Positions 1-53,237 of a DNA stretch of 64,000 nt are shown piece after piece (positions within the stretch are counted from its first letter, which is position 1; every line of letters starts with the position of its first letter). The DNA is from an uncultured Actinomycetes bacterium. Lineage in GTDB: Bacteria; Actinomycetota; Acidimicrobiia; IMCC26256; DASPTH01. The stretch lies in assembly GCA_963835985.1 (NCBI GenBank), contig CAWIHV010000004.1:22952-86951 (forward strand). Reading direction: 5' to 3'. The position numbers and the translations under genes are program-made. The notes under the pieces were generated by a model that was not told the origin of the DNA, did not search any database, and saw only the letters and a list, made by a program, of their open reading frames with translations.

Positions 1-837
1 GACCACCCGGCGGGCGACGTCGACCACCCGGAAGCGGTCGAACAGGAACCGGCGCTCGTCGCTGAGGGACTCCCGGTAGTCGGCGACGGTCGCCGCCACG
101 TCGTCCATGCTCGGCGCCAGCGCGTCGAGGTGCACGACGATCGGCGGATCCTCACGGAAGCGGGGCCGTCCCTCGTGATCGGCGGTGAGGCGAGCGACCG
201 CGCGGACGTGGTCCTTGCGGAGCGCGCGCGTGACATCGCGTTCCGCCTGGGCGCGGTAGCGCTTCGGGAAGTGGGCCACCAGGTCGTCGGCGGTCGTCCG
301 GTCGTACCAGACGTCGAGCGTGCGCATGCTCGCGTACTGATCGACGTACTCGCGGTAGACCCGCACGGCGTCGAGCACGACCTGGTCGCGCTGCGAGCTT
401 CGGAAGCCGTGCTCCCGGGCGACGACGTGCAGGCTGGTGGCGAGACGCTTGACGTCCCACTCCCACGGGCCCCGGTCGGTCTCGTCGAAGTCGTTGATGT
501 CGAACACGATGTTGCGCTCCGGGGTGGCGAAGGTGCCGAAGTTCGCCACGTGCACGTCGCCGCACGCCTGCACCGTGATACCGGTGACGGGCGTCGTCGA
601 CAGGTCCATCGCCATGACCGCAGCACCACCGCGGAAGAACGCGAAGGGCGACGCGGCCATCCGCGCGTACCGCACCGGCACGAGCTCGGCGACACGCGTG
701 CGCGCCTGCTCCTCGAGCACGGCGACGGGATCACGGTCGCGCACCTCGACGTCCCACTCCGAGTGCGCGGAGCGCGGGACGTCGGACCGCAGTGCGCGAC
801 CCGCCTCGCGCCGTTCGGCTCCCGTCTTCGCGGTCAT
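1..837 (-). CDS. DUF2252-family protein (3' end cut by window edge)
   Basis: Manual minus-strand translation from the ATG at 837 gives MTAKTGAERREAGRALRSDVPRSAHSEWDVEVRDRDPVAVLEEQARTRVAELVPVRYARMAASPFAFFRGGAAVMAMDL...VQACGDVHVANFGTFATPERNIVFDINDFDET. It stays open to position 1. It is absent from the ORF track because it runs off the edge. The 130..870 + ORF is its antisense shadow. Confidence 0.75.
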   Translation of the reverse strand, partial: MTAKTGAERREAGRALRSDVPRSAHSEWDVEVRDRDPVAVLEEQARTRVAELVPVRYARMAASPFAFFRGGAAVMAMDLSTTPVTGITVQACGDVHVANFGTFATPERNIVFDINDFDETDRGPWEWDVKRLATSLHVVAREHGFRSSQRDQVVLDAVRVYREYVDQYASMRTLDVWYDRTTADDLVAHFPKRYRAQAERDVTRALRKDHVRAVARLTADHEGRPRFREDPPIVVHLDALAPSMDDVAATVADYRESLSDERRFLFDRFRVVDVARRVV

Positions 838-850
838 GGGTGGTCTCCCG

Positions 851-3212
851 TCAGAGGTAGCCGTCGCTGATGAGCTTCTTGGTCGCGAAGTTGCCCCAGA
901 TGGGTGGCAGGTAGGTCGTGAACAAGCGGTGGGTGACCACCGTCGCGGTCGCGATCTCGGGCGGGATGCCGAACGCGGTGAGGCCCGACACCATGGCCGC
1001 TTCCATGACGCCGATGCCGCCCGGCACCGGCACCAGGCTGGCGAGGAACGACGCCGACGTGTTCACGAACACGATCTCGGCGACCGAGAGGTTGCCGCCG
1101 TACGCGGTGAGGCACGAGAGGAGACACAAGGAGTAGAGCAGCTGCGCGGCGACGCTGCCGCCCATGATCATGAACAGCTGGCGGGGCGTGGTGAGGATTC
1201 CCCAGATGTTGCGCACGGCGCCGACCACCTGTGGCCACACCTTCTGCTGGAGGAACCGGCGCACCGGGCGGATCGCGAACGCGATGCCCACGAGCACCGC
1301 GCCCACGAACACGAGCAGCAGGATGAGGCTGCGCTCCTCGTGGTCGGGTCCGGCGCCGCCCACGTCCGAGAGGCTCACTTCCTGCCCCACCACGATGGCG
1401 GTGAGCACGAACAGCGTGAACTGCGTCACGGTCCCCGCGAGCCCGAGCAGCACGCCCGACGACGTCGCCGCGCCCACTTCGACGCCCTGCTTCTGGAGGA
1501 AGCGGATGTTCATGATCGCCGACGACGCGCCGGTGGGCGCCACGAGGTTGACGAACGACACCGCCATCTGGAGGAGCACGGCCGGCACCAACGGGATCGC
1601 CTGCGGCACCGAACCGATCGTGTTGCACGCGAACGCCACCGACGTCGTCTGCGCGAGCACGAAACCGACGACGAGCCACGGCCAGTCGGCGGTCTTCAGC
1701 GTGGCCCAGAGCTCGCTCAGGCTGCCGACCTGACCGAGGATGACCCACAGCGCGAAGAGCAGCGCGACGACCATCACGATGTTCAGCGGCTTGACCCGCC
1801 GCAGCTCGATCGGCTGCACGAGCTCGCCGTCGGTACGCGCCGCGACCGCGGTGGTGAGCTCGTCGAGCAGTCCCTTCTGCGCGCGCAGCGCACGGCGAGC
1901 CTCCGGAGTGAGCGCAGGCTTGGTGAGATAGCGCTGCGCCACGCGCAGCTCGTCGGCGGTGAGGACTCGCGCGGCGGCGTCGACCGCTGGTCCGGCGCCG
2001 GTGCGCAGCGCGGTGGACACGAGCGCCTGTGCGACATCGAGGTCGAGTCGGGCTTCGGACGCGGAGATCGAGCCCTTGTCGATGTCGACGATGGTCGCGG
2101 TCCCCTCGCCCACCAGGACGTGTTCGCCGTCCAGGGCACCGTGGGCGACGCACGCGTCGTGCAAGCGCCGGACGTCGTCCCACAGCGCGGTCACGCCGGT
2201 GGTCAGGTCGGATCCGTCGCCGATCTCGGCGAGCGAGGGGTGGTCGGGTTGGTCGAGGGCGAGGAGCACGGCGGAGGGTCCGGCGATCCCTGCGGCGACG
2301 ATCGCCGGGACGTGGGCGCCGGCATCGCGCACGGCGAAGAGGCAGACCGCCTCGTGCTCGACCTGCTGGAGGCGACTGAGCGTGAGCGTGGGGCCGGAGT
2401 CCTTGTAGGCGAGGAACCGCCAGGCCTTCGCCACCAACCGGGTGTCAGCGGCGTCCCGTCCGTAGACGCGCACGCGCAACGGTGGTCCGTCGGGCCGCGA
2501 CGCGAGCACCATGGTCGAGCCGGTCGGTTGTTCGGGCGTGAGCTCGACGGCGGTCGTCACGACCCCGAGCTCCGCGAGCGCGGCGCCGACCTGGGCCATG
2601 GTCGGCCGCCCGGCCGGGGACCCCGAGCGCGAGGTGCACGATCGCGGCGACGCCCCATCCGACGGCCACCGCGCCGACCACCGCGTCGACGCCGCCGAGG
2701 CCGAGGACCAGCGCGCCCGGCGTGACCACCAGCAGGACCAGCTGCCCGCAGCGCCGGACCGGACGGGTCAGGAAGGGGCTCGCAACCAGCACGACCGCCG
2801 CGAGCACCGCGAGACGCACGGTCGGATAGGAGGTGGTGTCGTCGCTCGAGAACGCCTTCCCGAGCGCAGACCAGACGTCGGCTCCTGCCACGGTGAACGC
2901 CAGGAACTTCGCGACGAACCACGCGAGCACCCCGCTCGCGGCGATCACCGTCGCGAGCCGGTAGCGCCGCGCCACCAGGGCGGCGACGACCACCAACGCG
3001 AGGCCCCACAGATATCCGACCGCGAGCGCGACCTCGAACACACCGTCGAACGAACCCGGCAACGTGGCGAAGAAGGCGTCGAGCGTGGCCTCCGCCGACC
3101 GCAGGAACTGCGGATTCGCCGCGGTGATCGCCACGAGGACCGCCGCGAGCACGAGCCGCACCCAGTCGCCGGTGAGGCGTCGGTACGGCCGCTCGTCCGC
3201 GTGACCGAACAC
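851..3212 (-). CDS. Polytopic membrane protein with N-terminal TM domain, kinase-like (probable pseudokinase) domain and C-terminal LPG-synthase-TM/UPF0104 flippase-like domain; frame broken by one extra base (paralog 1)
   Basis: ORFs 851..2599 and 2445..3374 join if one C of the CCCC run at 2621-2624 is dropped, giving ...IVHLALG|SPAGRPTMAQVGAALAELG. This is colinear with the paralog at 49811 (HLVFGSPGGRPTTAQVEATLVELG). The GTG at 3212 aligns with the paralog N-terminus (ERPYRRLTGDWVRL vs EQPYRRRTSDWVRL). The C-terminal LVPVPGGIGVMEAA motif is typical of UPF0104. Corrected length is 786 aa. Confidence 0.8.
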
Positions 3213-3278
3213 ACCCCGTCGCGAGGGGTCGCGCCGGGTGCCCTGGGCGCTCACGCGGCGGACCCTAGTCTCGGCACC

Positions 3279-5364: not shown

Positions 5365-5469
5365 GCCCGCATGGTCGCGTTTCGCCGCGCCAAGGGCGCA
5401 AACGCCCCTACCCCGAACACCTCAAGGATCACGTCCACGTACGTACGCGAAGCTTGAGATGTTCGATGT

Positions 5470-6373
5470 CTAGAACCCCAGGCGGTCGAGGGCGTGGGCA
5501 GCGCCGTTGCCAGTCGCGGTCGACCTTCACCTTGGTGTCGAGGTGCACGTGCGCGCCGAACAAGGCCTCGAGCTCCTCACGGGCCTGGGTGCCGGCCTCG
5601 CGGATCACCGCGCCGCCCTTGCCGATCACCATGCCCTTCTGCGACTCGCGCTCGACGAGGACCTTCACCTCGTAGCGGAGCACGTCGTCGTCGCGCTCGG
5701 GTTCCGACTCCTCCGCCACCACGGTGATCGAGTGCGGCAGCTCTTCCCGGGCGACGCGCAGCAGCTTCTCGCGCACCAGCTCGGCGACGAGGAACGTCTC
5801 GGGCTGGTCGGTGACCACCCCGCCCGGGTAGTACTCCGGCCCCTCGGGCAGGCGCGCCTCGAGCTCACCCACCAACGCGTCGATGCCTTCGCCGTTCTGG
5901 CTCGAGAGGGGCACGTAGGCGTCGAAGTCGCCGAGCTCGGCGACCGCGGCGACGAGCTGCTCCCCCACCGCCGCGTTGGTCACGAGGTCGGTCTTGCTGA
6001 CCACGAGCACCTTCGGCGTGTCGACCTGTTGCACGAGCTCCGCGACGAAGCGGTCGCCGGGACCGATGCTCGCGTTCGCCTCGATGAGGAGGCACACCGC
6101 GTCGACCTCGGCGAGGGTCGACCGCGCGCGCACGTTGGTGCGCTCACCCAGGAGCGTGCGCGGCTTGTGGATGCCCGGCGTGTCGAGCAGCACGAGCTGC
6201 GACGTGGGTGTCGTGCGCACCCCGCGGATCTGGGTGCGGGTGGTCTGCGGACGGTCGGACACGATGGCGACCTTCGTGCCCACCAAGCGGTTCACCAGCG
6301 TCGACTTCCCGACGTTCGGCCGTCCGACCAGGGACACGAAACCCGACCTGAAGGTGTCCGGGGTGTCGGTCAT
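5470..6373 (-). CDS. era: GTPase Era (3' end frameshifted by one extra base near 5497-5503)
   Basis: FVSLVGRPNVGKSTLVN (G1), DTPGIH (G3), SKTD (G4) and a KH-type C-terminus. The ORF track reads ...DWQRRCPRPRPPGVLD to 5429. Skipping one base gives DWQRR(A/C)HALDRLGF followed by TAG at 5470-5472, the canonical Era ending. Corrected length is 300 aa. Confidence 0.9.
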
Positions 6374-7729: not shown

Positions 7730-8230
7730 TCAGCCTTCGAGCTGTCGGAACTTCTCCAACAACTCACGTTCCCGGCGTTGCATCGATGCGGCCTCGCGTT
7801 CGTCGGCGTGGTCGTAATTCAGCAAGTGCAGCACACCGTGGACCACGAGCAGCGCAAGCTCGTCGTCGACTGTGCCGGCATGCGTCGGCGCCTGCTGGGC
7901 GGCCACGGTGGGGCACACCACGACGTCGCCGAGGACGATCGGCGGATCGGCGGGTTCGGTCGCACTGCCCGGCCCGCGGCCGCCGGTGTCGGGATGGCGG
8001 CCGCTCGGCAGTTGGGCGTCGTCGATCGGGAACGAGAGCACGTCGGTCGGACCCTCGCCGCCGAGGAACCGGCCGTTGAGGTCGGCGATGGCCTCCTCGT
8101 CGACGAAGATCAGCGACACCTCGGCGTCGGCCGGCGCGCGCTCCTCGGCCAGCACCAGGCGTGCGAGACGGAGCCAGCGGGGCAGGTCGACCTCGAGGGT
8201 CGACTGCTCGTCGGAGGCGAAGACGGCCAT
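7730..8230 (-). CDS. ybeY: Endoribonuclease YbeY (rRNA maturation)
   Basis: 166 aa with the metal-binding motif [11 protein letters not shown]. Conserved position between phoH and the CorC-like gene. Confidence 0.93.
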
Positions 8231-8235
8231 CAGGG

Positions 8236-9192
8236 TCAGTCGTTCGCCCGCTCGTACACGTTCACGATGTCCTGGACGATCTTGTGGCGCACGACGTCGT
8301 GGGTGTCGAGCTCCACGAACGCCAGGTCGGGAACCCCGACGAGGATCTCGCGCACCGCGAGCAGACCGCTGCGGCCCCGGCCCTCGGGCAGGTCGATCTG
8401 GGTGACGTCGCCGGTGACGACGATCTTGGACCCGAACCCGAGCCGGGTGAGGAACATCTTCATCTGCTCCGGCGTGGTGTTCTGCGCTTCGTCGAGGATG
8501 ATGAACGAGTCGTTGAGCGTGCGGCCGCGCATGAACGCGAGCGGTGCGACCTCGATGGTGCCGCGCTCCATGAGCCGCGTCACGACCTCGGGCTCGAGCA
8601 TGTCGTAGAGGGCGTCGTAGAGCGGCCGCAGGTAGGGGTCGACCTTGGCCAGGATGTCGCCGGGCAGGAAGCCGAGCCGTTCGCCGGCCTCCACCGCGGG
8701 CCGGGTGAGGATGATCCGGTTGATCTCCTTGGCTTGGAGCGCCTGCACCGCGAGCGCGACCGCGAGGTAGCTCTTGCCGGTGCCGGCGGGACCGATGCCG
8801 AAGGTGACGGTGTGCGTGCGCACCGCGTCGACGTAGCGCTTCTGTCCCGCCGTCTTCGGCCGCACCGGCTTCCGCCCGCGCAACACCTCGGTCGTGAGCA
8901 CGTCGGTGGGGCGTTGGTCGGCCTTCAACATCTGGATGCTCCTGCCCACACCCGCGGAGTCGAGGACGTGACCCGCTTCGAGCAGCGCCACCATCTCCTC
9001 GAAGAGTCGGCCGACGCGATCGGCCTCGACCTCGTCGCCCCGGATGGTGATCTCGTTCCCGCGGACGTGGATCTCGACCGGGAACGCGTCCTGCACGAGA
9101 CGCAGCAATTCATCGCGCTGGCCGAGCAGGCCCACCATCAGGTGGTTGCCCGGTACGAGGATCTTGACCTGGGTCGGCGACGGTGCTGGCAC
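8236..9192 (-). CDS. phoH: PhoH-like ATPase
   Basis: 318 aa with Walker [24 protein letters not shown] and [12 protein letters not shown] are typical of PhoH/YbeZ. Confidence 0.93.
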
Positions 9193-9215
9193 GACGACAG
9201 CAGCGTAGTCGTGCC
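9188..9215 (-). terminator. Perfect 8-bp stem hairpin downstream of the XRE gene, overlapping the phoH GTG start
   Basis: ggcacgac-gacagcagcgta-gtcgtgcc (stem 9188-9195 / 9208-9215). It sits in the 47-nt gap between the XRE stop (9240) and the phoH start (9192). Confidence 0.35.
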
Positions 9216-9239
9216 GCCTTCGTCAGCAGACGGGAATGG

Positions 9240-9737
9240 TCAGGCGCTGACTGCCGCGCGGAGGCCGAGCTCGTCGAGCCGGCTCCCGAGATCCTCGGGG
9301 CTGCGCCCCATCACCGCGGCGAGCACGCGCAGGTCGTCGCTGCGGATGGTGAGCATCTGCCCGTTGAAGTCCTGCCGCTGGAGCTGGATCGTCGCGGCGT
9401 ACCGCGCGATCACTGCCGCGTCGTCGTCGTCGATCTCGTGCAGGCGCACCAGGTCGATGGTGAACCCGTCGCCCGCGATGCCGATCGGTTCGGTGAGGTC
9501 GATCTCGAGGTCGTGGGCACCCTTGGGCAGGAGCTGGTCGGGCGGGACCCGGTAGAGCTCGGCCAGCCGGAGCAGGCGCGGCACCGAGATGGCGCGCTCA
9601 CCGCGTTCGTACGCGCCGAGCACCGAGGCCTTGAACTCCTGGTCGGAGCGCGCCTCCACGTCGTGGAGGGAGAGCCCCTTCTGCCGCCGAATTGCCCGAA
9701 GGCGTTCTCCGACATGACGTCCATCGACGCGTTCCAT
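9240..9737 (-). CDS. XRE-family helix-turn-helix transcriptional regulator with uncharacterised C-terminal domain
   Basis: HTH segment VGERLRAIRRQKGLSLHDVEARSDQEFKASVLGAYERGERAISVPRLLRLAELY. I prefer the internal ATG (MERVDGRH...) at 9737 over the ORF-track start at 9782. Confidence 0.8.
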   Translation of the reverse strand: MERVDGRHVGERLRAIRRQKGLSLHDVEARSDQEFKASVLGAYERGERAISVPRLLRLAELYRVPPDQLLPKGAHDLEIDLTEPIGIAGDGFTIDLVRLHEIDDDDAAVIARYAATIQLQRQDFNGQMLTIRSDDLRVLAAVMGRSPEDLGSRLDELGLRAAVSA

Positions 9738-9800
9738 GTTGTTCCCAAGCCCCCTGTTTGCCACTCGCCCCGCTGGGACCATATCACTGAGTGCTGCCCG

Positions 9801-10577
9801 TCACCACTCTCTGCGGTCGCCCAGATTGGATGAAATGGCGCGTCGGCCTGCCAACGCGGCGGCCACCGCGATCGCCGCGGTCTCCGCACGGAGGACGAAC
9901 GGGCCGACCGCAAGGCGCGGTGCGGCGCCGAAGCCGCGGAGCTCGTCGTCGTCGAAGCCGCCTTCGGGCCCGACCGCGACCACCCACTCGCCGTCGGACG
10001 GAGCGCCGAGCTCGCCAGCCGGGACCCCATCGGGCGCCGCGACCACCAGCCCCGGGAAGAGAACCAGCTCGGCCGGCACGACCGGGCCGTCGACCACCGG
10101 AATGCGCGAACGGCGCGACTGCATCGCCGCCTCGCGGGCAACCCGGGCGAGACGGGTGAACGCCGTGGCCACCTTGTCGTCATCCCACCGCACGACGGAA
10201 CGGGCCGCCTCGACCAGCACGATGCGATCGACGCCCAGTTCGGTGAGCTTCTGGACCGCGAGCTCCGGCTTCTGACCCTTGGTGAGGGAGCAGGCGACGG
10301 TGAGGCCCGGAACGAGCGACGGTTCGCGTGCGACCAGTGTGATCGCGTCGAGCTCGACCGCACCGCCTACGGCACGCGCAACGTCGTACGCGCGCCAACG
10401 CCCGTAGCCGTCGGCGACGGTGACCTGCTCGCCGGCACGTACGCGACGCGCGCGCTGCAGGTGATGCCCGTCGTCGCCCTCGACGGTGATGCGATCGTCG
10501 AGGCGCTCGGCGAACACGTGGGCCGTCGCCGCGAACTGCGCGGCCAGCGGGACCGGTGGTTCGACCGGCGGCGTCAT
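9801..10577 (-). CDS. rsmE: 16S rRNA (uracil1498-N3)-methyltransferase RsmE
   Basis: The last 258 codons of ORF 9801..11225 from the ATG at 10577 (MTPPVEPP...). Contains HHLQRARRVRAGEQVTVADGYG (PUA-like) and VAVGPEGGFDDDEL (SPOUT knot motif). Lies downstream of dnaJ as in many bacteria. Confidence 0.88.
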   Translation of the reverse strand: MTPPVEPPVPLAAQFAATAHVFAERLDDRITVEGDDGHHLQRARRVRAGEQVTVADGYGRWRAYDVARAVGGAVELDAITLVAREPSLVPGLTVACSLTKGQKPELAVQKLTELGVDRIVLVEAARSVVRWDDDKVATAFTRLARVAREAAMQSRRSRIPVVDGPVVPAELVLFPGLVVAAPDGVPAGELGAPSDGEWVVAVGPEGGFDDDELRGFGAAPRLAVGPFVLRAETAAIAVAAALAGRRAISSNLGDRREW

Positions 10578-13983: not shown

Positions 13984-15810
13984 TCAGTCGTCCAGACGGA
14001 GCGCGGCCACGAAGGCCTCCTGGGGGACCTCGACGCGCCCGATCTGCTTCATGCGCTTCTTCCCCTCCTTCTGACGGTCGAGCAGCTTGCGCTTGCGCGA
14101 GATGTCACCGCCGTAGCACTTGGCGATGACGTCCTTGCGCTTCGCCTTCACCGTCTCGCGGGCGATGATGCGCCCGCCCACCGCGGCCTGGATCGGCACG
14201 TCGAAGAGCTGTCGCGGGATGAGCTCGCGCAGCTTCTCGGTCATTCGCTTCCCGTAGTCGTACGCCCGATCGCGGTGCACGATGGTGGAGAAGGCGTCGA
14301 CGGCGACGTTGTTGAGCAGCACGTCGACCTTCGACAGGTTCGACGCGCGGTACCCGATCGGCTCGTAGTCGAGACTCGCATAGCCCTTCGTGCGCGACTT
14401 CAATTGGTCGAAGAAGTCCATGACGATCTCGGCGAGTGGGAGCACGTAGACCAGCTCGACGCGCTCCTCCGACAGGTACTCCATGCGCGTCATGTCGCCG
14501 CGCCGCTGCTGGCAGAGCTCCATGATCGTCCCGATGTACTCCGTTGGCGTGAGCACGGTGACGGTGACGAAGGGCTCTTCGATGCTCGCGATCTCGTTGG
14601 GCGTGGGCATCGCCGACGGGTTGTCGACGATCTCGACGGTGCCGTCGACCAGCTCGAGCTGGTACTCGACGTTGGGCGCAGTGGCGACGAGCGAGAGGTC
14701 GTACTCGCGCTCCAGCCGCTCGCGCACGATCTCCATGTGCAGCAATCCGAGGAACCCGCACCGGAAGCCGAAGCCCAGCGCGCCCGACGTCTCGGGCTCG
14801 TAGGTGAACGACGAGTCGTTGAGGCGCAGCTTCTGGAGCGACTCGCGCAGCTCCGCGTACTCGTCGCCGTCGACCGGGTAGAGCCCACAGAACACCATGG
14901 GCTTGGGGTCGAGGTAGCCCGGCAACGCCTCCCCGGGGTGCGCAGCCGTGGTGACGGTCTCGCCGACGCGCGCCTGGCCGACGTCCTTGATCCCGGCGAT
15001 GAGGTAGCCGACCTCACCCGGGCCGAGCGCGGCGACCGGAGTGGTGGCGGGGAGTCGCACGCCCACCTCCTCGGCGTCGTGGATCGCCTTCGCCTGCACG
15101 TAGCGCAGTCGGGCACCGCTGCCGAGGCTGCCGTTGAACACGCGGACGGAGCTCACGACGCCGCGGTACGCGTCGTAGATCGAGTCGAAGATCAGGGCCT
15201 GCAGCGGCGCGTCGGGGTCGCCCGTCGGCGCCGGGATGCGCGCGACCAACGCGTCGAGCAGCTCGGGCACACCTTCGCCGGTCTTGGCCGAGATGTGCAG
15301 GATCTCGTCGGCGGGGATCCCCAGGACGTGCTCGATCTCGGAGGCGACGCGGTCGGGTTCGGCGGCGGGCAGGTCGATCTTGTTGAGGGCGGCCACGATG
15401 GTGAGGTCGTGCTCGAGCGCGAGGTAGCAGTTGGCGAGCGTCTGGGCCTCGATCCCCTGCGAGGCGTCGACCAGCAGCAGCGCACCCTCACAGGCGGCGA
15501 GACTCCGGGACACCTCGTACCCGAAGTCGACGTGACCCGGCGTGTCGATGAGGTGCAGCACGTGGTCGGCCCAGTGCAGGCGCACGTTCTGGGCCTTGAT
15601 CGTGATGCCCCGCTCCCGTTCCAGGTCCATCGAGTCGAGGTACTGCGCCCGCATGTCCCGGGCGTCGACGGCCCCGGTGAGCTCGAGGATCCGGTCGGCC
15701 AACGTCGACTTCCCGTGGTCGACGTGGGCGACGATGCTGAAGTTGCGGAACCGATCGAGCCCGGGCACACCCCATTCTCCCCGCCCCGAGGGCGTTGGCA
15801 CGAACCCCAT
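13984..15810 (-). CDS. lepA: Translation elongation factor 4 (LepA)
   Basis: [18 protein letters not shown] (G1), DTPGHVDF (G3), NKID (G4) and a LepA C-terminal domain. The true start may be the in-frame GTG at 15768 ([13 protein letters not shown]). Confidence 0.93.
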
Positions 15811-15890
15811 TGCCTCCTGCTAGCCTGATCCGGCCTTCCGGCACCTTTCTCTCCCCGCCTCTCTCGAATTCCCGGAGCACTGCACGCGCC

Positions 15891-16151
15891 ATGGCGAACA
15901 TCAAGAGCCAGATCAAGCGGAACCGCTCGAATGAACGGCGGCGCCTCCGCAACCAGGGTGTGCGCTCCGAGCTGAAGACGCGCGTGAAGACCGCGTCCAC
16001 GGCCATCGAGACCGGCGCCGACGACGCCCCCGAGGCCGTCCGCCTTGCGCAGAAGCGCCTCGGCAAGGCCGCGTCGAAGGGCCGCATCCACAAGAACCAG
16101 GCCGCCCGGCGCACCTCCCGCCTCATGAAGAAGGCCGGCACCAACTCCTAG
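15891..16151 (+). CDS. rpsT: 30S ribosomal protein S20
   Basis: ATG at 15891: MANIKSQIKRNRSNERRRLRNQGVRSELKTRVK..., 86 aa. Divergent from lepA as usual. Confidence 0.93.
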   Translation: MANIKSQIKRNRSNERRRLRNQGVRSELKTRVKTASTAIETGADDAPEAVRLAQKRLGKAASKGRIHKNQAARRTSRLMKKAGTNS

Positions 16152-16153
16152 GT

Positions 16154-16205
16154 CGGCAAAGTCACGCGATCTGGCACGTCAGCGTTCCAGATCGCGCAGC
16201 TTTGG
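16154..16205. repeat. Palindromic intergenic element, copy A (CGGCAAAG-N10-TGGCACG-N21-CTTTGG); likely also the rpsT terminator
   Basis: Starts 3 nt after the rpsT stop. Perfect 10-bp inner stem cgcgatctgg (16165-16174) / ccagatcgcg (16187-16196). Outer caaag/ctttg arms are complementary. Same architecture as copies at 34908 and 35923. Confidence 0.7.
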
Positions 16206-16212
16206 GGCTTCG

Positions 16213-16623
16213 CTAGCCGTTCGGCGGCACCATGCAGTCGAACACGTAGGCGGTGTCGAGGAACTCCCACGCTTCGGCGATCTTGCCGTCGCGGACGCGG
16301 AACAGCATGTGGTACGAGCCGTGGTACTCGTTGCCGGCGGTCGTGCGCGCGTGCATCGTGCAGTGCAACGTGACGAGGTCGTCCTCGGCGAGGACGTGGT
16401 CGATGTCCCACGTGCGGTCGGGTTCGTAGACCTCCGTCGACCCGATGAAGAGCGCGTGGACCTGCTCACCCGACAGGTCCTGGGCGGGGAAGCCGCGCTG
16501 GGCCACCGACGTGGGGAGGTGCCAGACCGCGTCGTCGGCGAGGTACGGGATCTTGTCGGGCTGCGCCGCAGCCCAGAACTCGAGCACGAGCTCCTTGTTG
16601 CGCGCGGTGTCGCTCACGACCAC
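16213..16623 (-). CDS. SnoaL-like / NTF2-fold protein
   Basis: 136-aa intact ORF. The NKELVLEFW start, a central hydrophobic core and a DGKIAEAWEFLD ending are typical of the SnoaL/ketosteroid-isomerase-like fold. Confidence 0.7.
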   Translation of the reverse strand: MVVSDTARNKELVLEFWAAAQPDKIPYLADDAVWHLPTSVAQRGFPAQDLSGEQVHALFIGSTEVYEPDRTWDIDHVLAEDDLVTLHCTMHARTTAGNEYHGSYHMLFRVRDGKIAEAWEFLDTAYVFDCMVPPNG

Positions 16624-16627
16624 GACG

Positions 16628-17677
16628 CTATCGCCGTCGGCCTCCCGTGCGCGCGCTCAATCGCGCCAGCCGGACGACCAGGACCTCCATCACCGCCTGC
16701 TCGGGGATGCCGCGCGCGCCCTTGAGGTCGAGATCGGCCTGGAACAGCGCGTCGAACGCCTGACGGATCCCGCCGTTGCCGAGTGCACGCGCCTGGTTGA
16801 GCGCCTTGCGCGCGGGATACTCCTTCACCTTGCCGCCGAGCGCGGCGACCGCGTCGGCGGGCGAGCGCAGTGACGGGTCGTCGAGCCGCAGGATGCGGCG
16901 GTAGTACCCGTTGAGCATGCCCATGACCTGCAGTGGGTGCATCGGCTTGGGTTGCTGGCGGCTCGACACCGTGAGCAACCGGTGCAGGATCTCCAACGCG
17001 GTCGCGGGGTCGCCTTCCTCGATGGCGTTGGTGAGCTGGTACGACGGCACCGCGCCGGCCTCGCCGAGGTACGGGCGCACGTCGTCGACCCCGAGGGTGA
17101 CGTCGGGAGTCGACGCGGCCGCGAGCACGTCGACCAGCGCGGCAACGCGGCCGGCGTCGTCGCCCAGGTGCGATGTGATCAGGCGGGCGGCGTCGCCGGT
17201 GAGCAGCACGCCGGCCTCGTGCGCGGCGGCGATGAGGACCTTGTCGGTCTTCTCGCTCTCGGGCGCGCGCTCCTCGGCCTTGACTTCCTTGAGCTTCTTG
17301 GTGAGCGCGGGTGGCATGGTCCCGCCGCCCGCGACGAACACGAGGATGGTCGTGTCGAGCGGGTCGTCGAGGTAGCGGACGATGCCGTCGACATCCCCGG
17401 CGGTGAGGGCACCGACGTCACGCACCACGACGACACGGTGCTCGGTCATGAACGGCGGACTGCCGGCCGCGTTGAGGAGCGCGGCGACCGCGGCGTCACG
17501 ACCCTCGGCGCCTGCGGGCGCCTCGCTCTCGTCGCCCACCCCGGCGCGGCCGGGAATGGTGATGTCCTCCAGCGCCAGCGTGGGATCGTCGGCGCCGAGG
17601 ATCTCGGTGAGGAGGTCGGCGACGACGCGATCGCGAAGTGTTGGATCGGTCCCTTTCACGAGGTACGTCCCGCTCAT
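16628..17677 (-). CDS. holA: DNA polymerase III subunit delta (HolA)
   Basis: 349 aa from the ATG at 17677 (MSGTYLVKGTDPTLRDRVV...). Conserved position between rpsT and comEC. C-terminal ...DLDLKGARGIPEQAVMEVLVVRLA resembles the delta subunit. Confidence 0.8.
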   Translation of the reverse strand: MSGTYLVKGTDPTLRDRVVADLLTEILGADDPTLALEDITIPGRAGVGDESEAPAGAEGRDAAVAALLNAAGSPPFMTEHRVVVVRDVGALTAGDVDGIVRYLDDPLDTTILVFVAGGGTMPPALTKKLKEVKAEERAPESEKTDKVLIAAAHEAGVLLTGDAARLITSHLGDDAGRVAALVDVLAAASTPDVTLGVDDVRPYLGEAGAVPSYQLTNAIEEGDPATALEILHRLLTVSSRQQPKPMHPLQVMGMLNGYYRRILRLDDPSLRSPADAVAALGGKVKEYPARKALNQARALGNGGIRQAFDALFQADLDLKGARGIPEQAVMEVLVVRLARLSARTGGRRR

Positions 17678-19971: not shown

Positions 19972-20802
19972 TCAGACGGTGACGAGCGGTGCGAGCTCGG
20001 CGAAGCGCTTGTCGCCGATGCCCCGCACGCTGCGCAGGTCGTTGACCGAGGTGAAGCCGCCGCGCCGTTGCCGCTCGGCGAGGATCGCCTCGGCGTACGT
20101 GGGACCGATGCCCGGAAGCTCCTCGAGCTGCGCCTGGCTCGCGGTGTTGAGGTTCACCTTGCCGCCGGTCGTGCCGCCACCGGGATCGTCGACCCCGCTG
20201 GCGCCGTCGCCGGCGGTCGCCGCGCCCGGATCGGCCTGTCCGACCTTCGCCACGTACACCCGCTGCCCGTCGGTGACCTTCGCCGCGAGGTTGAGGCGGT
20301 CGAGGTCGCCGTCGGCGAGCGCACCGCCGACGGCCTCGACCGCGTCGATGACGCGGGCACCCGAGCGAAGTTCGACGACACCCGGATGGTTCACCGCGCC
20401 GGCCACGTGCACCGCGATCGTCGCCGACGCTCCCCCGCCGCCAGTCGTCGCGGTCGCGCCCACCGTGGTGCTCGCCGCGGTCGTGCTGACCGCCGCCGGC
20501 GCCGCACTCGACTCGCCCGCGCTCGCACCGCCGATCCCGATGCGGTACCAGATGACGCCGGCGACGAGCGCCACGCCGATCAGCACGACGATCCCGAAGC
20601 GGGCGTCGTGACGCCAGTCGGCCAGCCGATCGCCGAACCGCTCGGTGAGTCGAGCGAACGCGGGTTCGCGTTCACGACGCTGCTCGCGTCGTGGGAGCGT
20701 GTGTCCGTCACGGCGCCCGCGAGGTGGACGGGGCGGGTCGCGGAACTGCGCGTCCCAGAACTCCTGCTCCTCGCGAGAAGGCTGACCCGACTGCTGCACC
20801 AT
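19972..20802 (-). CDS. comEA: ComEA-family DNA-binding competence protein (helix-hairpin-helix)
   Basis: ATG at 20802 ([16 protein letters not shown]...). One TM segment ([18 protein letters not shown]), an SLBB-like [15 protein letters not shown], and C-terminal [29 protein letters not shown] (HhH). The ORF track fuses it to leuS. Confidence 0.88.
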
Positions 20803-20915
20803 GGCTGACCTCCGTGGACGGCGCGCCGGGCGCGCGTCACTGCGGGGGAAGAGCCGGGGAGGCGACCGCGATCGTACCGGGCGCCCGTCGGGTGAGGAAG
20901 GGCCGCCCGGAGCGG

Positions 20916-23835
<2,920 letters not shown>

Positions 23836-23897
23836 GTCGGGCGAGCGTACCGGGCCGAGATCGCGTGACCCGCGCTGGTATCGTGGCCATCCCTCGC

Positions 23898-23970
23898 GGG
23901 GCTGTAGCTCAGTTGGTAGAGCACTTCCATGGCATGGAAGGGGTCAGGGGTTCGATTCCCCTCAGCTCCA
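23898..23970 (+). tRNA. tRNA-Ala (anticodon GGC)
   Basis: Hand-folded cloverleaf: acceptor GGGGCTG/CAGCTCC with the G3:U70 Ala identity pair; D arm GCTC-AGTTGGTA-GAGC; anticodon arm CTTCC-ATGGCAT-GGAAG (GGC at 34-36); T arm AGGGG-TTCGATT-CCCCT. CCA is not encoded. Confidence 0.93.
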
Positions 23971-44763: not shown

Positions 44764-44776
44764 TCCGTCCGGAACG

Positions 44777-44795
44777 GGCCCCTTGGCCCGGGGCC
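44777..44795 (+). terminator. GC hairpin after the hemolysin-III gene
   Basis: ggcccc-ttggccc-ggggcc lies 14 nt after the stop and is followed by an unusually AT-rich stretch (ctgcaaaaatttcgcc). Confidence 0.4.
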
Positions 44796-44817
44796 GCCGA
44801 TCTGCAAAAATTTCGCC

Positions 44818-46104
44818 ATGAGCGTCGCGGAGCTCTTGTCCGATGTCCTCGGTGACCGCGTCCCCGTCGCGTTCCGCGCCTACGACGGATCCACCTTCGG
44901 ACCGTCCGACGCGCGCACCACGATCGTGGTGCGTTCACCCGACGCCCTCCGCCGCATCGTGACCGCCCCCGACGAGCTCGGCTTCGGTCGCGCCTACGTC
45001 GCCGGTGAGCTCGAGGTCGACGGCGACATCTTCGACGTGATGGCGGTGGCCAACTACATCGAGGAGCTGCACCTCGGACCGCGTCAGATCCTGGCCGCCG
45101 CCAAGCTCGTGGGCTGGAAGGGCCTGAAGCCGCTCGCGCCTCCGCCCGAAGAAGCCCGCCTCCGCGGGCGGCGCCACTCCCGCGATCGCGATGCCGCCGC
45201 CATCGCGTACCACTACGACGTGTCGAACGACTTCTACCGGATGGTGCTCGGCCCTTCGCTCACGTACTCGTGCGCGGTCTGGCACGACGACACCGCGACG
45301 CTCGAGGACGCGCAGGTGAACAAGCATGAGCTCATCGCGCGCAAGCTCGACCTCCAACCCGGTATGCGGCTCCTCGACGTCGGCTGCGGCTGGGGCGGCA
45401 TGCTCCTGCACGCGGCCGAGCACCACGGTGTCCACGCGGTGGGCGTGACGCTCTCACGGCCGCAGGCCGAGCTCGCACGCAAACGCGTCGCCGAGCACGG
45501 GCTGGGCGACCGGGTCGAGGTGCGCCACGCCGACTTCCGCGACGTCGACGACGGTCCGTACGACGCCATCAGCTCGATCGGCATGTTCGAGCACGTCGGA
45601 TTCACCGAGCTGGCCGGCTACTTCGCACGGTGTCACGCGCTGCTGCGGCCGGAGGGACGGCTGCTGAACCACGGCATCAGCCGTCCGCACCACGCGGGGC
45701 GGAAGCACCGTCACTGGTGGGAGCCGTCGTTCATCGACCGGAGCTTCACCGAGCGCTACGTGTTCCCCGACGGCGAGCTGCACGAGATCGGCAACGTCGT
45801 CTCCGCCATCCAGCGCGCCGGCTTCGAGGCCCGCCACATGGAGAGCCTGCGCGAGCACTACGCGCTCACGCTCCGGTGCTGGGTGCGCAACCTCGAGGAC
45901 AACTGGGACGCCGCCGTCGCCGAGGTCGGACCCGGCCGGGCACGGGTGTGGCGCCTCTACATGGCAGCCGCGGCGATGGGCTTCGAGCACGACGACAACC
46001 AGGTGCACCAGGTGCTGGCCACCGCCACCACCGCTGGCACGAGCGGGATGCCGCTGCGACCCCGATTCACTGACGACGAGGCGCGATTAATGTCCGCGCC
46101 TTAA
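44818..46104 (+). CDS. Cyclopropane-fatty-acyl-phospholipid synthase family SAM methyltransferase
   Basis: 428 aa. YDVSNDFYRMVLGPSLTYSCAVW, LLDVGCGWGGMLLHAA (SAM motif I), SIGMFEHVG. Confidence 0.9.
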   Translation: MSVAELLSDVLGDRVPVAFRAYDGSTFGPSDARTTIVVRSPDALRRIVTAPDELGFGRAYVAGELEVDGDIFDVMAVANYIEELHLGPRQILAAAKLVGWKGLKPLAPPPEEARLRGRRHSRDRDAAAIAYHYDVSNDFYRMVLGPSLTYSCAVWHDDTATLEDAQVNKHELIARKLDLQPGMRLLDVGCGWGGMLLHAAEHHGVHAVGVTLSRPQAELARKRVAEHGLGDRVEVRHADFRDVDDGPYDAISSIGMFEHVGFTELAGYFARCHALLRPEGRLLNHGISRPHHAGRKHRHWWEPSFIDRSFTERYVFPDGELHEIGNVVSAIQRAGFEARHMESLREHYALTLRCWVRNLEDNWDAAVAEVGPGRARVWRLYMAAAAMGFEHDDNQVHQVLATATTAGTSGMPLRPRFTDDEARLMSAP

Positions 46105-49810: not shown

Positions 49811-52183
49811 ATGGCGGCGTGGCGCGCGCATTCCTTCGGGCCCGCGTCGGAGCAGCCCTACCGTCGGCGCACCAGCGACTGGGTGCGCCTCGTCATCGGC
49901 ATCGCGATCCTCGTCTTCGCGATCTGGCACCAGGACGATCCCGGCACCTTCGAACGCAACCTCTTCACCACCCTCAACGGGCTCCCGAACGAGCTCGACA
50001 CGTTCTTCCGGCTGCTGTATGCGCTCGGCGCGCTCTGGGCGCTCGCCCTGGTCGTGGTGACGGCGCTCGCGGCCCGGCGGTGGCGGCTGGCGCGCGACAT
50101 GGCCATCGGCGGCGTCACCGCGTGGGTGCTCGCCCGTCTCATCGGCACGCTCGTCGTCGAGAACGCGAGCTTGCAGCACGCGCTCGACGTCGACCACGAG
50201 GTTCGGCGACGACTCCGTCGCGTTCCCTGCGGTGCGGGTGGCGGTGATCGTGGCGGTGATCTCGGTGGCGTCGCCCTACCTCACCCGACCGATCCGCCGG
50301 CTCGGGCAATTGCTCGTCCTGCTGATCGCCATCGCGTCCATGTACCTCGGCACCACGTTGCCCGACGGCCTGCTCGCTGCGGTCGCCCTCGGGTGGAGCA
50401 TCGCCGCGCTCGTGCATCTCGTCTTCGGTTCGCCGGGCGGGCGCCCGACGACCGCCCAGGTGGAGGCCACGCTGGTCGAGCTGGGCGTCGACGCCCACGA
50501 CGTCCGTCTCCTCCCCCACCAACCGTCGAACGGCACCGCCATGAGCGCGCGCGACGACACCGGCGATCTCATGGTGCGCGTGCTCGGGCGCGACGAAGCC
50601 GACGCGCAGCTCATGTCGAAGTTCTGGCGCTCGCTCGCTTACAAGGACGGCGGCCCTGCGCTGCACACGACACGCCTGGAGGACGTCGAGGCGCAGGCGT
50701 ACGCGATGCTGCTCGCCGAACGCGCCGGCGTACAGGTTCCTGCGGTGGTGGTCGCGGGCACGGCCGGACCGGGCGCCGCCCTCATCGCCTCCCGACCGCT
50801 GGCCGGGACTCGGCTCTCCGACATGGATGCCGACGCGGTCACCGACGCGATGCTGGACGACCTCTGGAAGCAGGTCGCCGCGATGCACGCCGCTCGGGTC
50901 GCGCACGGTCGGCTGAACTGCAACCACTCGTGGTCGACGGCGCGACCGTCGGCATCGGCGACTTCGAGTTCGCCGCCGGCGCCGCCGCCACCGGACGGCG
51001 CGCCGCCGACATCGCCGAGCTCCTCGTGAGCACCGCGCTGCTCGTGGGCGACGACCGCGCCGTCGCCGCCGCGCGCGCCGGCCTCGGCGATGCGGCCATC
51101 ATCGAGGCGCTCCCCTACCTCCAGCCCGCGGCGCTGAGCCGCGACCTGCGCGTCGACCGCCGTCACCGCAAGGAGCGTTCGCAGGAGGTCGCGTCGGTGC
51201 GGGCGGCTGCCGCGACCGCCACCGGCACCGACGAGCCGCCGCTGCAGGAGCTCCACCGCGTCAGCGGCACCAACCTGATGATGGCGGTCGGCACGCTGAT
51301 CGCGATCTTCGCCCTCCTGAGCCAGGTGGGCAGCCCGCAGGAGCTGTGGGACACCATCACCAACGCCGACATCGGCTGGCTCATCGTGGCGATGATCATC
51401 TCGTTGCTCACGAACTTCGCCACCGCCATCGCGCTGATGGGGACGGTCCCGATCAACTTGCCGCTCGTGCGCACTGCGGAGCTGCAGCTCTCGATGTCGT
51501 TCTCGAACCTCGCGGTGCCGGCCATCGGCGGCATGGCCGCGCAGATCCGGTTCCTGCAGAAGCAGGGGGTCGACCTTGCGTCGGCGGTCGCATCGGGTGG
51601 CCTGCTGATCAACGTCGGCAACATCGTCGCCCAGGTGATGCTGCTCGGCGTCGCGCTGCTGCTGGCGCCGACCAAGATCCACGTCGAACCCATCGACACG
51701 CAGAAGCTCGTCACCTTGGTGCTGGTGGTCATCGTGGTCGCGGTCATCGTCGTCGGGCTGATCCTCGCGATCCCCAAATTGCGCAACTACGTCGTGCCGC
51801 CCACCAAAGCCGCCGCGGCCACGCTCTGGGAGGCCGTGCGCTCACCCCGGCGGGTCGCGCTGCTGCTCGGCGGCAACGCCATCAACGCGCTGATGTACGC
51901 GGGCGTGTACATGGCGTGCATCTACGCGTTCGGCGGATCCATCAATTACTGGACGCTCCTGTCGCTCAACATCATCATCTCGACGCTGGCGTCACTGGTG
52001 CCGATACCCGGCGGCAACACCGCGGTGTCGTCGGTCGGCATGTCCGGCGCGCTGGCCGCCGTCGGCGTGCCCACCGACATCGCGGTCGCCGCCGTGCTCG
52101 CCGACCAGTTGGTCGCGAGCTTCATCCCCGCGGTGCCTGGTTGGTGGGCCACGAACGACCTGCTGCACGACGACTATCTCTAG
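49811..52183 (+). CDS. Paralog 2 of the TM + kinase-like (pseudokinase) + LPG-synthase-TM/UPF0104 membrane protein; two compensating indels (~50201 and ~50927)
   Basis: The 790-aa ORF is open throughout, but residues encoded between ~50201 and ~50927 are Arg/Pro/Gly junk. The conserved sequence sits in ORF 50232..51029 (frame +1): FGDDSVAFPAVRVAVIVAVISVASPYLTRPIRRLGQ...LMVRVLGRDEAD...VAHGRLN. It returns to the original frame at LVVDGATVGIGDFEFAAG. Colinear with paralog 1 over its whole length. Confidence 0.8.
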   Translation: MAAWRAHSFGPASEQPYRRRTSDWVRLVIGIAILVFAIWHQDDPGTFERNLFTTLNGLPNELDTFFRLLYALGALWALALVVVTALAARRWRLARDMAIGGVTAWVLARLIGTLVVENASLQHALDVDHEVRRRLRRVPCGAGGGDRGGDLGGVALPHPTDPPARAIARPADRHRVHVPRHHVARRPARCGRPRVEHRRARASRLRFAGRAPDDRPGGGHAGRAGRRRPRRPSPPPPTVERHRHERARRHRRSHGARARARRSRRAAHVEVLALARLQGRRPCAAHDTPGGRRGAGVRDAARRTRRRTGSCGGGRGHGRTGRRPHRLPTAGRDSALRHGCRRGHRRDAGRPLEAGRRDARRSGRARSAELQPLVVDGATVGIGDFEFAAGAAATGRRAADIAELLVSTALLVGDDRAVAAARAGLGDAAIIEALPYLQPAALSRDLRVDRRHRKERSQEVASVRAAAATATGTDEPPLQELHRVSGTNLMMAVGTLIAIFALLSQVGSPQELWDTITNADIGWLIVAMIISLLTNFATAIALMGTVPINLPLVRTAELQLSMSFSNLAVPAIGGMAAQIRFLQKQGVDLASAVASGGLLINVGNIVAQVMLLGVALLLAPTKIHVEPIDTQKLVTLVLVVIVVAVIVVGLILAIPKLRNYVVPPTKAAAATLWEAVRSPRRVALLLGGNAINALMYAGVYMACIYAFGGSINYWTLLSLNIIISTLASLVPIPGGNTAVSSVGMSGALAAVGVPTDIAVAAVLADQLVASFIPAVPGWWATNDLLHDDYL

Positions 52184-53237
52184 GCGGACGCACTCCCGGT
52201 CGGTGTCGCGCCCTCATGGCGCGGATGGCGCCGCCGGAACATCCACGCGGCGATGCCACCGATCGGGATCGGCAGCCAGAAGGTGAGCAGTCGGTAGACC
52301 AGCGTTGCCACCAACGCATCGCCGGTGGAGATCCCCGCCACCGCGAGCGTCGCCGCGAGTCCCGCCTCCACGAACCCGAGCCCACCCGGGGTGAACGGGA
52401 TCAGTCCCAACACCGACGCCACGACGAACGCCAGCAGCACCAACGCGGGATCCGGATCGGCCGAGAGCCCGCACAGCGTCAAGCAGGAGCACGGCGTACT
52501 CGAGCAGCCAACGCGCGAGCGACGCCCCCAGCGCGAGCTCCCACTGGGGACCGATCTCGCGCCGGATGCGGTCGCGGCCCTCGATCAGCCGATCGCCCAG
52601 CGGATCGTCGGTCGTGGTGCGGTGGAGCTTGCCCCGGACCCAGGTCACCGCGCGGCCGAGCCCTCGGAGCGGCCCATCGGCGACGAACAGCGCGGTGCCG
52701 ATGACGACCATGAGGACGAACACCGGGATCCCGATCCAGAACGCCTGGAGCAGACCGGTCGGAACCTGCGTGCCCGACGAGGATGAACGGCAGTGCGAAC
52801 AGCGGGAGCGCGACGATCGACGCGGTGCTCAGCACCGACTGGACCGTGAGGGCGGTCGCCGCGTGCGCGACACCAAAGCCGGCATCAGCGAGCATGTTGG
52901 CCTGGAGCGCGGTACCGGTGGCGCCGCCACCCGGGGTGATGCGGTTGAAGGCGTTGCCGGCGAGCTGCGTCGTGCTCACCGAGAACCAATCGCGCGTGCC
53001 GAGGGCGAGGGCCTGCACCAACCACACCGACGCGAAGCTGCCGACGGCGCACGCCGTCGCCGGCAGGAGGTAGATGGGCTGCACGTCGCCGAGGCGGTCG
53101 TAGGCGGAGAACACCTCGGCGATGCTGGGCGCGAAGAAGTAGATGCAGATCACGCTCAGCGCCAGGAATGCGACCCGTCCCACCGTCCAGTGGGGATGCT
53201 CGTGGCGGTGGTCGGCTCGGTGCTCGGCATCAAGCAT
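52180..53237 (-). CDS. Stand-alone LPG-synthase-TM/UPF0104 (flippase-like) membrane protein; two extra bases (~52772 and ~52483)
   Basis: Three ORF pieces (52479..53237, 52214..52723, 52180..52482) join as ...LPFILVG|TQVPTGLLQAFWIGIPVFVLMVV... and ...LEYAVLL|LTLCGLSADPDP...GLIPFTPGGLGFVEAGLAA. Corrected length is 351 aa. Its 3' end overlaps paralog 2 by 4 nt (convergent). Confidence 0.8.

Follow-up and report, generated by a model that had tools for sequence, protein, structure and literature searches.

The 64-kb window analyzed here (64,000 nucleotides with a G+C content of 70%, from contig CAWIHV010000004.1 of an uncultured Actinomycetes bacterium) encodes two large membrane proteins, hereafter paralogs 1 and 2, in which predicted domains of PAP2 phosphatase fold and of protein kinase fold precede an LPG_synthase_TM/UPF0104 domain, the domain called PplT in a 2022 preprint (10.1101/2022.03.11.483950). 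The two genes, their modules and the features around them are listed in Table 1. After correction of their reading frames, the proteins (786 and 793 amino acids [aa]) aligned colinearly from end to end with 38% identity (E 3e-132), which is far beyond chance. Based on this full-length alignment, the original prediction, which had read two diverged, colinear paralogs of ~790 aa from the sequence, was correct about their relationship and their coordinates, and all of the motifs that it quoted are present.

Paralog 1 starts at a GTG codon at 3212, or alternatively at one at 3254, and ends at a TGA stop codon at 853-851. Its single frame break coincides with a 1-bp gap at 2621-2628 that is specific to the window when it is aligned with homologues in four other loci (L012, L013, L016 and L032), and an intact 786-aa relative, P0001, is 94% identical to it. 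Paralog 2 as deposited forms one open frame of 790 aa, although from ~50193 to 50928 the reading that is homologous to other family members sits in the +1 frame. Since these two compensating frameshifts leave one frame open, a gene caller would report a full-length paralog 2 in which ~245 central residues are a wrong-frame translation, which is a practical warning to users of this sequence.

The frameshifts in both paralogs are most likely assembly errors rather than signs of gene decay, since, in the corrected frame, paralog 2 and its orthologues share 80-83% identity over the shifted segment (compared with 25% in the open frame, and 76-93% in the flanks) and since similar isolated 1-bp indels, found in the window only, occur in neighboring genes, namely an amidohydrolase gene (48675) and a third UPF0104 gene (~52483 and ~52775). 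The source assembly's own protein call, P0013, is truncated at 540 aa, indicating that the indels sit in the deposited assembly. This truncation, together with the presence of frameshifts in both deposited copies, could instead mean that the paralogs are decaying and that their architecture has no present function in this organism. We consider this very improbable given that neither repaired frame contains an in-frame stop, that the shifted segment matches its orthologues as well as its flanks do, and that the ratio of nonsynonymous to synonymous substitution rates (dN/dS) between corrected paralog 2 and its L013 orthologue is 0.17 for the PAP2-like, 0.20 for the kinase-like and 0.08 for the PplT module; moreover, indels of the same kind occur in the two adjacent genes, and many of the related loci come from long-read metagenome-assembled genomes (MAGs). 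Programmed frameshifting was set aside because intact orthologues require no shift and other genes in the window bear the same type of indel.

Isolated 1-bp indels seen in the window alone break several unrelated genes (at 48675, 50193, 50928, ~52483, ~52775 and 2621-2624, and also in the era C-terminus near 5429-5500), which suggests an indel-rich, probably long-read assembly. The same cause may underlie the same-strand overlapping pairs of open reading frames (ORFs) at 12749-14104/13984-15819, 16628-17824/17674-18564 and 38291-39673/39559-40155.

Table 1. Coordinates of the two paralogs, their predicted modules and neighboring features in the window
Feature	Position	Strand	Details
Paralog 1, whole gene	851..3212	minus	786 aa after removal of one G
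Paralog 1, predicted N-terminal PAP2-fold domain with six transmembrane helices, degenerate motifs	2625..3212	minus	PSGH replaced by YPTVR at 2828-2808
Paralog 1, frame break	2621..2624	minus	apparent 1-bp insertion in a GGGG run; single correction needed
Paralog 1, putative RIO/Bud32-like pseudokinase, predicted cytoplasmic	1802..2614	minus	LRVRVYGRD 2479-2453 (beta-3); VEHEA 2362-2348 (alpha-C); VAHGALDGEH 2149-2120; IVDIDKG 2092-2072
Paralog 1, LPG_synthase_TM/UPF0104/PplT domain	854..1792	minus	PVPGGIG at 1030-1010; Pfam PF03706 E 2.2e-30
Paralog 2, whole gene	49811..52183	plus	793 aa after two frame corrections
Paralog 2, predicted PAP2-fold domain, degenerate motifs	49811..50430	plus	FPAVRVA at 50223-50243
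Paralog 2, 1-bp insertion (shift to +1)	50193	plus	DNA alignment with three intact orthologues (L012, L013, L026)
Paralog 2, putative pseudokinase	50431..51250	plus	LMVRVLGRD 50568-50594; VEAQA 50685-50699; VAHGRLNCNH 50898-50927; IGDFEF 50954-50971
Paralog 2, 1-bp deletion (frame returns)	50927..50928	plus	DNA alignment with intact orthologues (L012, L013, L026)
Paralog 2, LPG_synthase_TM/PplT domain	51251..52180	plus	PIPGGNT at 52001-52021; Pfam PF03706 E 1.5e-20
DUF2252 gene	1..836, off window edge	minus	PF10009 E 1.2e-75; begins 14 nt past the paralog 1 stop, behind a GGGAGA motif
Cyclopropane-fatty-acyl-phospholipid synthase gene	44764..46104	plus	PF02353 E 1e-93; 3.7 kb upstream of paralog 2
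Third UPF0104/LPG_synthase_TM gene, stand-alone, YbhN-like	52180..53237	minus	~350 aa; PF03706 E 1.5e-30 after manual repair

The three modules of the paralogs

Both paralogs are colinear over their full length with a relative, P0384 (31-32% identity; E 2e-70 and 7e-95), that has three modules in the same order and scores above the Pfam thresholds for all of them: PAP2 (63.9 bits), Pkinase (40 bits, with a threshold of 31.7 bits) and LPG_synthase_TM (118 bits). A second full-length relative in this identity range, P0357, likewise exceeds the thresholds for all three, and in both proteins the PAP2 and kinase sites are intact. These two proteins, like the tandem proteins WP_131949893.1 and WP_106400231.1 described below, share the three colinear modules with the window paralogs and keep KX6RP, PSGH and RX5HX3D as well as VK, HRDLRxxN and DFG, whereas the window paralogs keep only the DFG Asp. 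Since full-length relatives retain both sets of motifs, sequence comparison identifies the window paralogs as doubly degenerate members of a PAP2-kinase-PplT superfamily.

The C-terminal LPG-synthase-TM/UPF0104 domain that had been proposed for both proteins was borne out by Pfam (E 2e-30 and 1.5e-20), with PF03706 scores of 106.6 bits for paralog 1 (residues 481-773) and 74.3 bits for paralog 2 (residues 500-780) against a gathering score of 33.4 bits. An AlphaFold2 (AF2) model of full-length P0001, which served as a stand-in for paralog 1 (predicted local distance difference test score [pLDDT] 84.5), matched R. etli MprF (7f47) in Foldseek with E 6.7e-4 over 346 columns, that is, the MprF-type transmembrane (TM) fold. 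In common with MprF and stand-alone PplT/YbhN, the C-termini of the paralogs carry an 8-helix LPG_synthase_TM domain with a P-x-P-G-G hairpin, and, as in MprF, a transport domain is fused to a lipid-related module (PMC11980842; 10.1101/2022.03.11.483950). In contrast with MprF, the paralogs lack an aminoacyl-phosphatidylglycerol synthase (DUF2156/LPG_synthase_C) and end at the TM domain, scoring 33 bits with the NCBIfam model bifunc_MprF relative to a cut-off of 600, while their accessory modules are N-terminal to the transport domain, have PAP2 and kinase folds and are catalytically degenerate. The paralogs thus belong to the PF03706/PplT family and, lacking a synthase domain, are not MprF proteins.

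For the N-terminal module, described previously as a polytopic domain, the assignment to the membrane was right (six TM helices), but its PAP2 fold had been overlooked. When an AF2 model of residues 1-196 of the window protein (pLDDT 92, predicted template modeling score 0.87) was searched with Foldseek, the best match was B. subtilis PgpB (5jki; TM-scores of 0.70 and 0.69 over 200 columns), and matches 2-11 were all PAP2 proteins, including E. coli PgpB, G6PC1, LpxE and acid phosphatases. The homology to P0384 leads to the same fold. A Pfam scan returned no PAP2 match for either window paralog, and 5jki was the sole near-significant match of the family profile in the PDB (E 0.43, over the C3 motif region).

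Comparison with P0384 showed that all three PAP2 motifs have degenerated. In C1 (KX6RP), the Lys is replaced by Ala or Gly and the Arg-Pro pair by DV or AS; C2 (PSGH) reads PTVR or PAVR, with its Pro retained at the start of TM4; and in C3 (SRX5HX3D), Ala or Ser replaces the Arg and Gly or Thr the His. Because the catalytic Lys/Arg of C1, His of C2 and Arg/His of C3 have all been replaced, the domain is not expected to act as a phosphatase by the known mechanism, and model and sequence together identify it as a predicted PAP2-fold pseudo-phosphatase. With PgpB, BcrC and LpxE it shares the six-TM fold, the Pro of PSGH at the start of TM4 and a probable N-in/C-in topology, and it differs from these phosphatases in the loss of the catalytic residues. 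We infer this topology from the concentration of basic residues in the predicted cytoplasmic regions, where sequence and AF2 helices place clusters at the N-terminus and in the TM2-3 and TM4-5 loops (RPYRR, RRYR and TRPVRR); the relic PAP2 pocket would then face outward, and the kinase-like domain would be cytoplasmic.

The assignment of the middle domain to a protein kinase fold closest to RIO and Bud32 draws on three agreeing lines of evidence from models and sequences, which substantiate the kinase-like domain of the original prediction. First, the top Foldseek matches of the full-length P0001 model were RIOK, Rio1, Rio2, RIOK3, PRPK and APH, with eukaryotic protein kinases also matched (E 1e-5 to 6e-4). 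Second, a profile built from 80 family sequences matched Bud32 (8k20_B) with E 2.8e-5 and Rio2 with E 7e-5, aligning the family pattern iaHGaLdaeHvlv with LAHGDLTTSNMLV, ivDF with LIDFG and VEhEA with alpha-C, such that the HGD, N and DFG motifs coincide. Third, the domain is colinear with the Pkinase-positive domain of P0384. Single-sequence matches to kinase families were all below threshold (Kdo, 16.7 bits with a cut-off of 21.3; Bud32, 24.7 bits with a cut-off of 125; also Rio1). The paralogs share with RIO and Bud32/PRPK, their best structural and profile matches, a kinase core of compact form, a catalytic loop of HG(D) type and an insertion that separates beta-3 from alpha-C. RIO and Bud32 are soluble ATPases, associated with the ribosome or with KEOPS, in which the catalytic Lys, Asp and Asn are retained, whereas the domain of the paralogs lacks these residues and lies between two membrane domains.

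Alignment to P0384, whose motifs are canonical, also bore out the proposed replacement of the HGD Asp by Ala or Arg and of the strand-3 Lys. The beta-3 motif is FIK in P0384 and VRV-R in both paralogs; the catalytic loop is IAHRDLRRANVLID in P0384, VAHGALDGEHVLV in paralog 1 and VAHGRLNCNH-LVV in paralog 2; and the DFG region is IIDFG, IVDID and IGDFE, respectively. At the positions of the beta-3 Lys, HRD Asp, catalytic-loop Asn and DFG Asp, P0384 therefore has K/D/N/D, paralog 1 R/A/H/D and paralog 2 R/R/H/D, so that both paralogs fail the active-kinase residue set and retain the DFG Asp alone. The alpha-C Glu is present in paralog 1 and in most relatives and is Gln in paralog 2 and its orthologues. 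Over 397 instances of the domain, the catalytic Asp is rarely present, its place being taken by A, R, G, S, Q, C, N, H or E. The catalytic-loop Asn has mainly given way to His, with A, T, R and S as further replacements, and the DFG Asp is kept in most members but replaced in many relatives of the copy-2 type. Three features do not vary in the family: the HRD His, the alpha-F Asp and a G-R-D motif that follows beta-3. The absence of three canonical residues (beta-3 Lys, HRD Asp and catalytic-loop Asn), combined with free variation at the Asp position, supports the classification of the domain as a predicted pseudokinase, with a classic pattern of decayed catalytic residues in a fold under structural constraint, and strengthens the earlier prediction to that effect.

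These residues also bear on whether the kinase-like domain could still be an ATPase or kinase that uses non-canonical residues and powers or gates lipid movement, in which case it would resemble the RIO/Bud32 ATPases or kinases with a relocated Lys. Most members do have a Q-x-x-G-x-T hairpin at the position of the P-loop and retain both the DFG Asp and a basic beta-3 residue, which is Arg in the two window copies; the alpha-C Glu is widely kept, although not in paralog 2; RIO and Bud32 provide the closest folds, one of them a Rio2 phospho-aspartate complex (4gyi); and bacterial pseudokinases with Arg in place of Lys are predicted to bind ATP (review PMC12599244). Nevertheless, the patternless substitution of the catalytic Asp and the replacement of the Asn, mostly by His, together with the change of the alpha-C Glu to Gln in copy 2 and its orthologues and the loss of the DFG Asp from many copy-2-type relatives, make residual catalysis of this kind unlikely in our judgment.

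Membership in the DYD family of pseudokinases was likewise considered. In this family, the beta-3 Lys is replaced by Arg, the alpha-C Glu is absent, HRD is retained and DFG has become DYD (PMC12599244). Compared with that description, paralog 1 agrees in its beta-3 Arg and carries a D-I-D motif (P0001 has D-F-D); it departs from it in retaining the alpha-C Glu and in having no HRD Asp. Membership was not adopted.

A family with a mosaic of catalytic states

An exhaustive profile search recovered at least 3,349 representative clusters (50% identity) at E <= 1e-3, 973 of them at E <= 1e-30, and most representatives are 780-830 aa long with the kinase-like domain at about residues 215-490. At least 433 stretches in reference genomes encode a relative. 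Most belong to Acidimicrobiia, with other carriers in Gaiellaceae, Solirubrobacteraceae, Microthrixaceae, Iamiaceae and one cultured Acidothermaceae strain (B102, AP028633.1), as well as in MAG fragments of Streptosporangiaceae. A word-indexed search with the profile of the kinase domain returned chiefly truncated fragments of the PAP2-kinase-PplT family and no new architectures. Database names for these proteins are generic, for example "phosphatase PAP2 family protein", [quoted passage not shown], "YbhN/Bud32" and "undecaprenyl-diphosphatase".

Two orthologous groups within the family match the two window paralogs, and a pair of family loci is also present in each of at least three other genomes. 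Among copy-2 orthologues, dN/dS was 0.17-0.30 for the PAP2-like, 0.20-0.26 for the kinase-like and 0.08-0.18 for the PplT module. These substitution rates indicate purifying selection on all three modules, with the modules of dead-enzyme type more relaxed than PplT yet clearly maintained.

Family members differ in catalytic state, with both sites intact, the kinase site only, or neither. One locus in an Acidimicrobiales MAG (L040) combines a member with canonical kinase motifs (VK, HRDLRRAN and DFG) and a degenerate PAP2 domain (15476-17905) with a fully degenerate member (7767-10364) 5 kb away, and the two could be a kinase/pseudokinase pair. Giant proteins of 1,557-1,978 aa have the order PplT-[PAP2-kinase]-(PplT)-[PAP2-kinase]-PplT with intact catalytic motifs; they are P0247 (WP_131949893.1, Actinomadura), P0286 (WP_106400231.1, Actinocorallia populi), P0239 (HUF31647.1) and P0240, and giant proteins of this kind occur in cultured Actinomadura (sp. 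GC306) and Actinocorallia (A. populi and A. libanotica) as well as in Acidimicrobiales MAGs. This tandem arrangement hints that the functional unit is dimeric.

The tandem proteins, the 5-kb pair of L040 and the maintenance of two paralog lineages across Acidimicrobiia hint at a broader interpretation, to which we assign a low probability: the superfamily could be an unrecognized actinobacterial machine for lipid handling and signaling that exists in several states, in which doubly dead paralogs act as non-catalytic partners and pair as heterodimers, either among themselves or with an active member. Such a machine would couple the recognition of phosphorylated lipids in the outer leaflet to gated translocation, in parallel with the kinase/pseudokinase pairs of eukaryotes.

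Candidate functions and gene neighborhood

By analogy with characterized transporters, we favor with moderate confidence the reading that the paralogs are lipid scramblases or flippases in which the relic enzyme modules have binding or regulatory roles. Each paralog would be an inner-membrane protein of ~790 aa built of PAP2-fold, kinase-fold and PplT modules, with PplT being the part most likely to move lipid between the leaflets. The transport domain of P. aeruginosa MprF is an energy-independent, promiscuous scramblase, and the specificity of MprF fusions has been proposed to stem from the fused enzyme, as "selectivity by proximity" (PMC11980842). In a similar manner, the relic PAP2 pocket may bind a phosphorylated lipid head group at the outer face and so provide substrate choice by proximity, while the pseudokinase, itself non-catalytic but possibly able to bind nucleotide, may act in the cytoplasm as a scaffold or an allosteric switch coupled to the transport domain. 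Given the PAP2 ancestry, the best-fitting substrate would be a lipid that bears phosphate, with polyprenyl phosphate, polyprenyl pyrophosphate, phosphatidylglycerol and its phosphate as examples. A fused PAP2-PplT partnership is also consistent with the reported two-hybrid interaction of E. coli PplT/YbhN with PgpB, a PAP2 enzyme (10.1101/2022.03.11.483950).

Several points weigh against this reading. The role in lipid transport is carried over from MprF, to which sequence similarity is low, the family is known from sequences and predicted models, both window paralogs carry frameshifts in the deposited sequence, and among the 80 loci compared no conserved gene neighborhood indicates a substrate. 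In addition, loss of canonical residues is no proof of total inactivity; RIO and Bud32 work mainly as ATPases, and some "pseudokinases" catalyze other reactions.

A substrate-specific form of the same model concerns the recycling of polyprenyl phosphates, in that the PAP2 module would take C55- or C50-polyprenyl pyrophosphate (C55-/C50-PP) at the outer face and PplT would return the monophosphate to the inner leaflet. We regard this route as doubtful for the window paralogs, and we are equally hesitant about the extension of it by which active relatives would dephosphorylate C55-/C50-PP and degenerate ones merely bind it. The nearest folds are PAP2 enzymes such as PgpB, which are undecaprenyl-pyrophosphate phosphatases (E. 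coli PgpB was labeled a C55-PP phosphatase in the Foldseek listing), JGI names several members "undecaprenyl-diphosphatase", and the pathway would presumably need an outward-facing phosphatase fused to a lipid translocator. However, the window paralogs lack the PAP2 catalytic residues, no cell wall genes are adjacent to them, the role of the kinase module would be left unexplained, and the JGI names are automatic annotation.

The original prediction had likened the paralogs to mycobacterial MviN/MurJ; in M. tuberculosis, an ActPs3 pseudokinase on MurJ is phosphorylated by PknB and bound by FhaA (PMC12599244). By this precedent, the pseudokinase of the paralogs would be a phospho-regulated docking platform, such that a Ser/Thr kinase phosphorylates it, an FHA protein binds and translocation is switched. 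Both systems place a cytoplasmic pseudokinase on a polytopic translocator of lipids or lipid-linked substrates in an actinobacterium (PMC12599244), and the kinase-canonical member of L040, encoded 5 kb away from a degenerate member, is a possible cognate kinase. The likeness of the kinase domains did not hold up, since Foldseek and profile place that of the paralogs near RIO/Bud32 and not with the Hanks-type ActPs3 of MviN. The systems further differ in their membrane domains (MprF-type compared with the MOP/MurJ fold) and domain order; the paralogs have no extracellular carbohydrate-binding domain, no link to PknB/FhaA was found, and a conserved Thr-rich tail was not identified. With regard to the partners that had been suggested for such a mechanism, the 64-kb window contains no FHA, Ser/Thr kinase or PP2C genes, and clustering of the neighbors in 80 loci yielded no widely conserved partner. 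The resemblance to MviN is thus by analogy only, and we consider regulation of this type improbable.

Turning to the novelty of the family, the claim that this architecture had not been characterized needs to be divided: no functional study of a PAP2-kinase-LPG-synthase fusion was found in the literature searched, but the kinase-PplT fusion had already been listed, uncharacterized, as a frequent architecture in Actinobacteria (10.1101/2022.03.11.483950). The fusion is missing from a 2025 review of pseudokinase families in bacteria (PMC12599244). The family is real, widespread and mechanistically suggestive, is built from known domains and has an architecture that was partly noted before. How bacteria move and sort lipids between leaflets is poorly understood, and the MprF-type domain was only recently shown to be a scramblase. 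With both, one or none of their sites intact, PAP2-kinase-PplT proteins would form a natural series for learning how accessory modules confer specificity or regulation on a promiscuous scramblase, and they would extend the short list of described bacterial pseudokinase families by a RIO/Bud32-like lineage embedded in the membrane.

The DUF2252 gene that follows paralog 1 is probably in the same operon, and a DUF2252 gene is found near a family member of one or another subfamily in 8-9 of the 80 loci. Its product contains a stretch, "CGDVHVANFG ... DINDFDE", that we take, as an unconfirmed impression, to resemble a catalytic loop of APH/choline-kinase type; a comparison of the protein with PDB sequences gave nothing meaningful. 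The other flank of paralog 1 is occupied by a gene for a META-domain lipoprotein and then by an era/corC/phoH housekeeping cluster.

Upstream of paralog 2 are genes for a cyclopropane-fatty-acyl-phospholipid synthase, a luciferase-like oxidoreductase, a short-chain dehydrogenase/reductase, a glyoxalase and an amidohydrolase, a context common only to close relatives. The synthase gene is a further membrane-lipid-modifying gene beside paralog 2, in an arrangement that is likewise kept only in close relatives. The third UPF0104 gene is convergent with paralog 2 and broken by two apparent +1 frameshifts, with a gene for a major facilitator superfamily transporter beyond it; its orthologues lie near the copy-2 gene solely in close relatives.

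Elsewhere in the window, a 1,323-aa stop-to-stop ORF on the minus strand (19972..23943) joins ComEA-type domains (SLBB and HHH_3) to leucyl-tRNA synthetase domains and probably spans two adjacent genes or is one more frame artifact.

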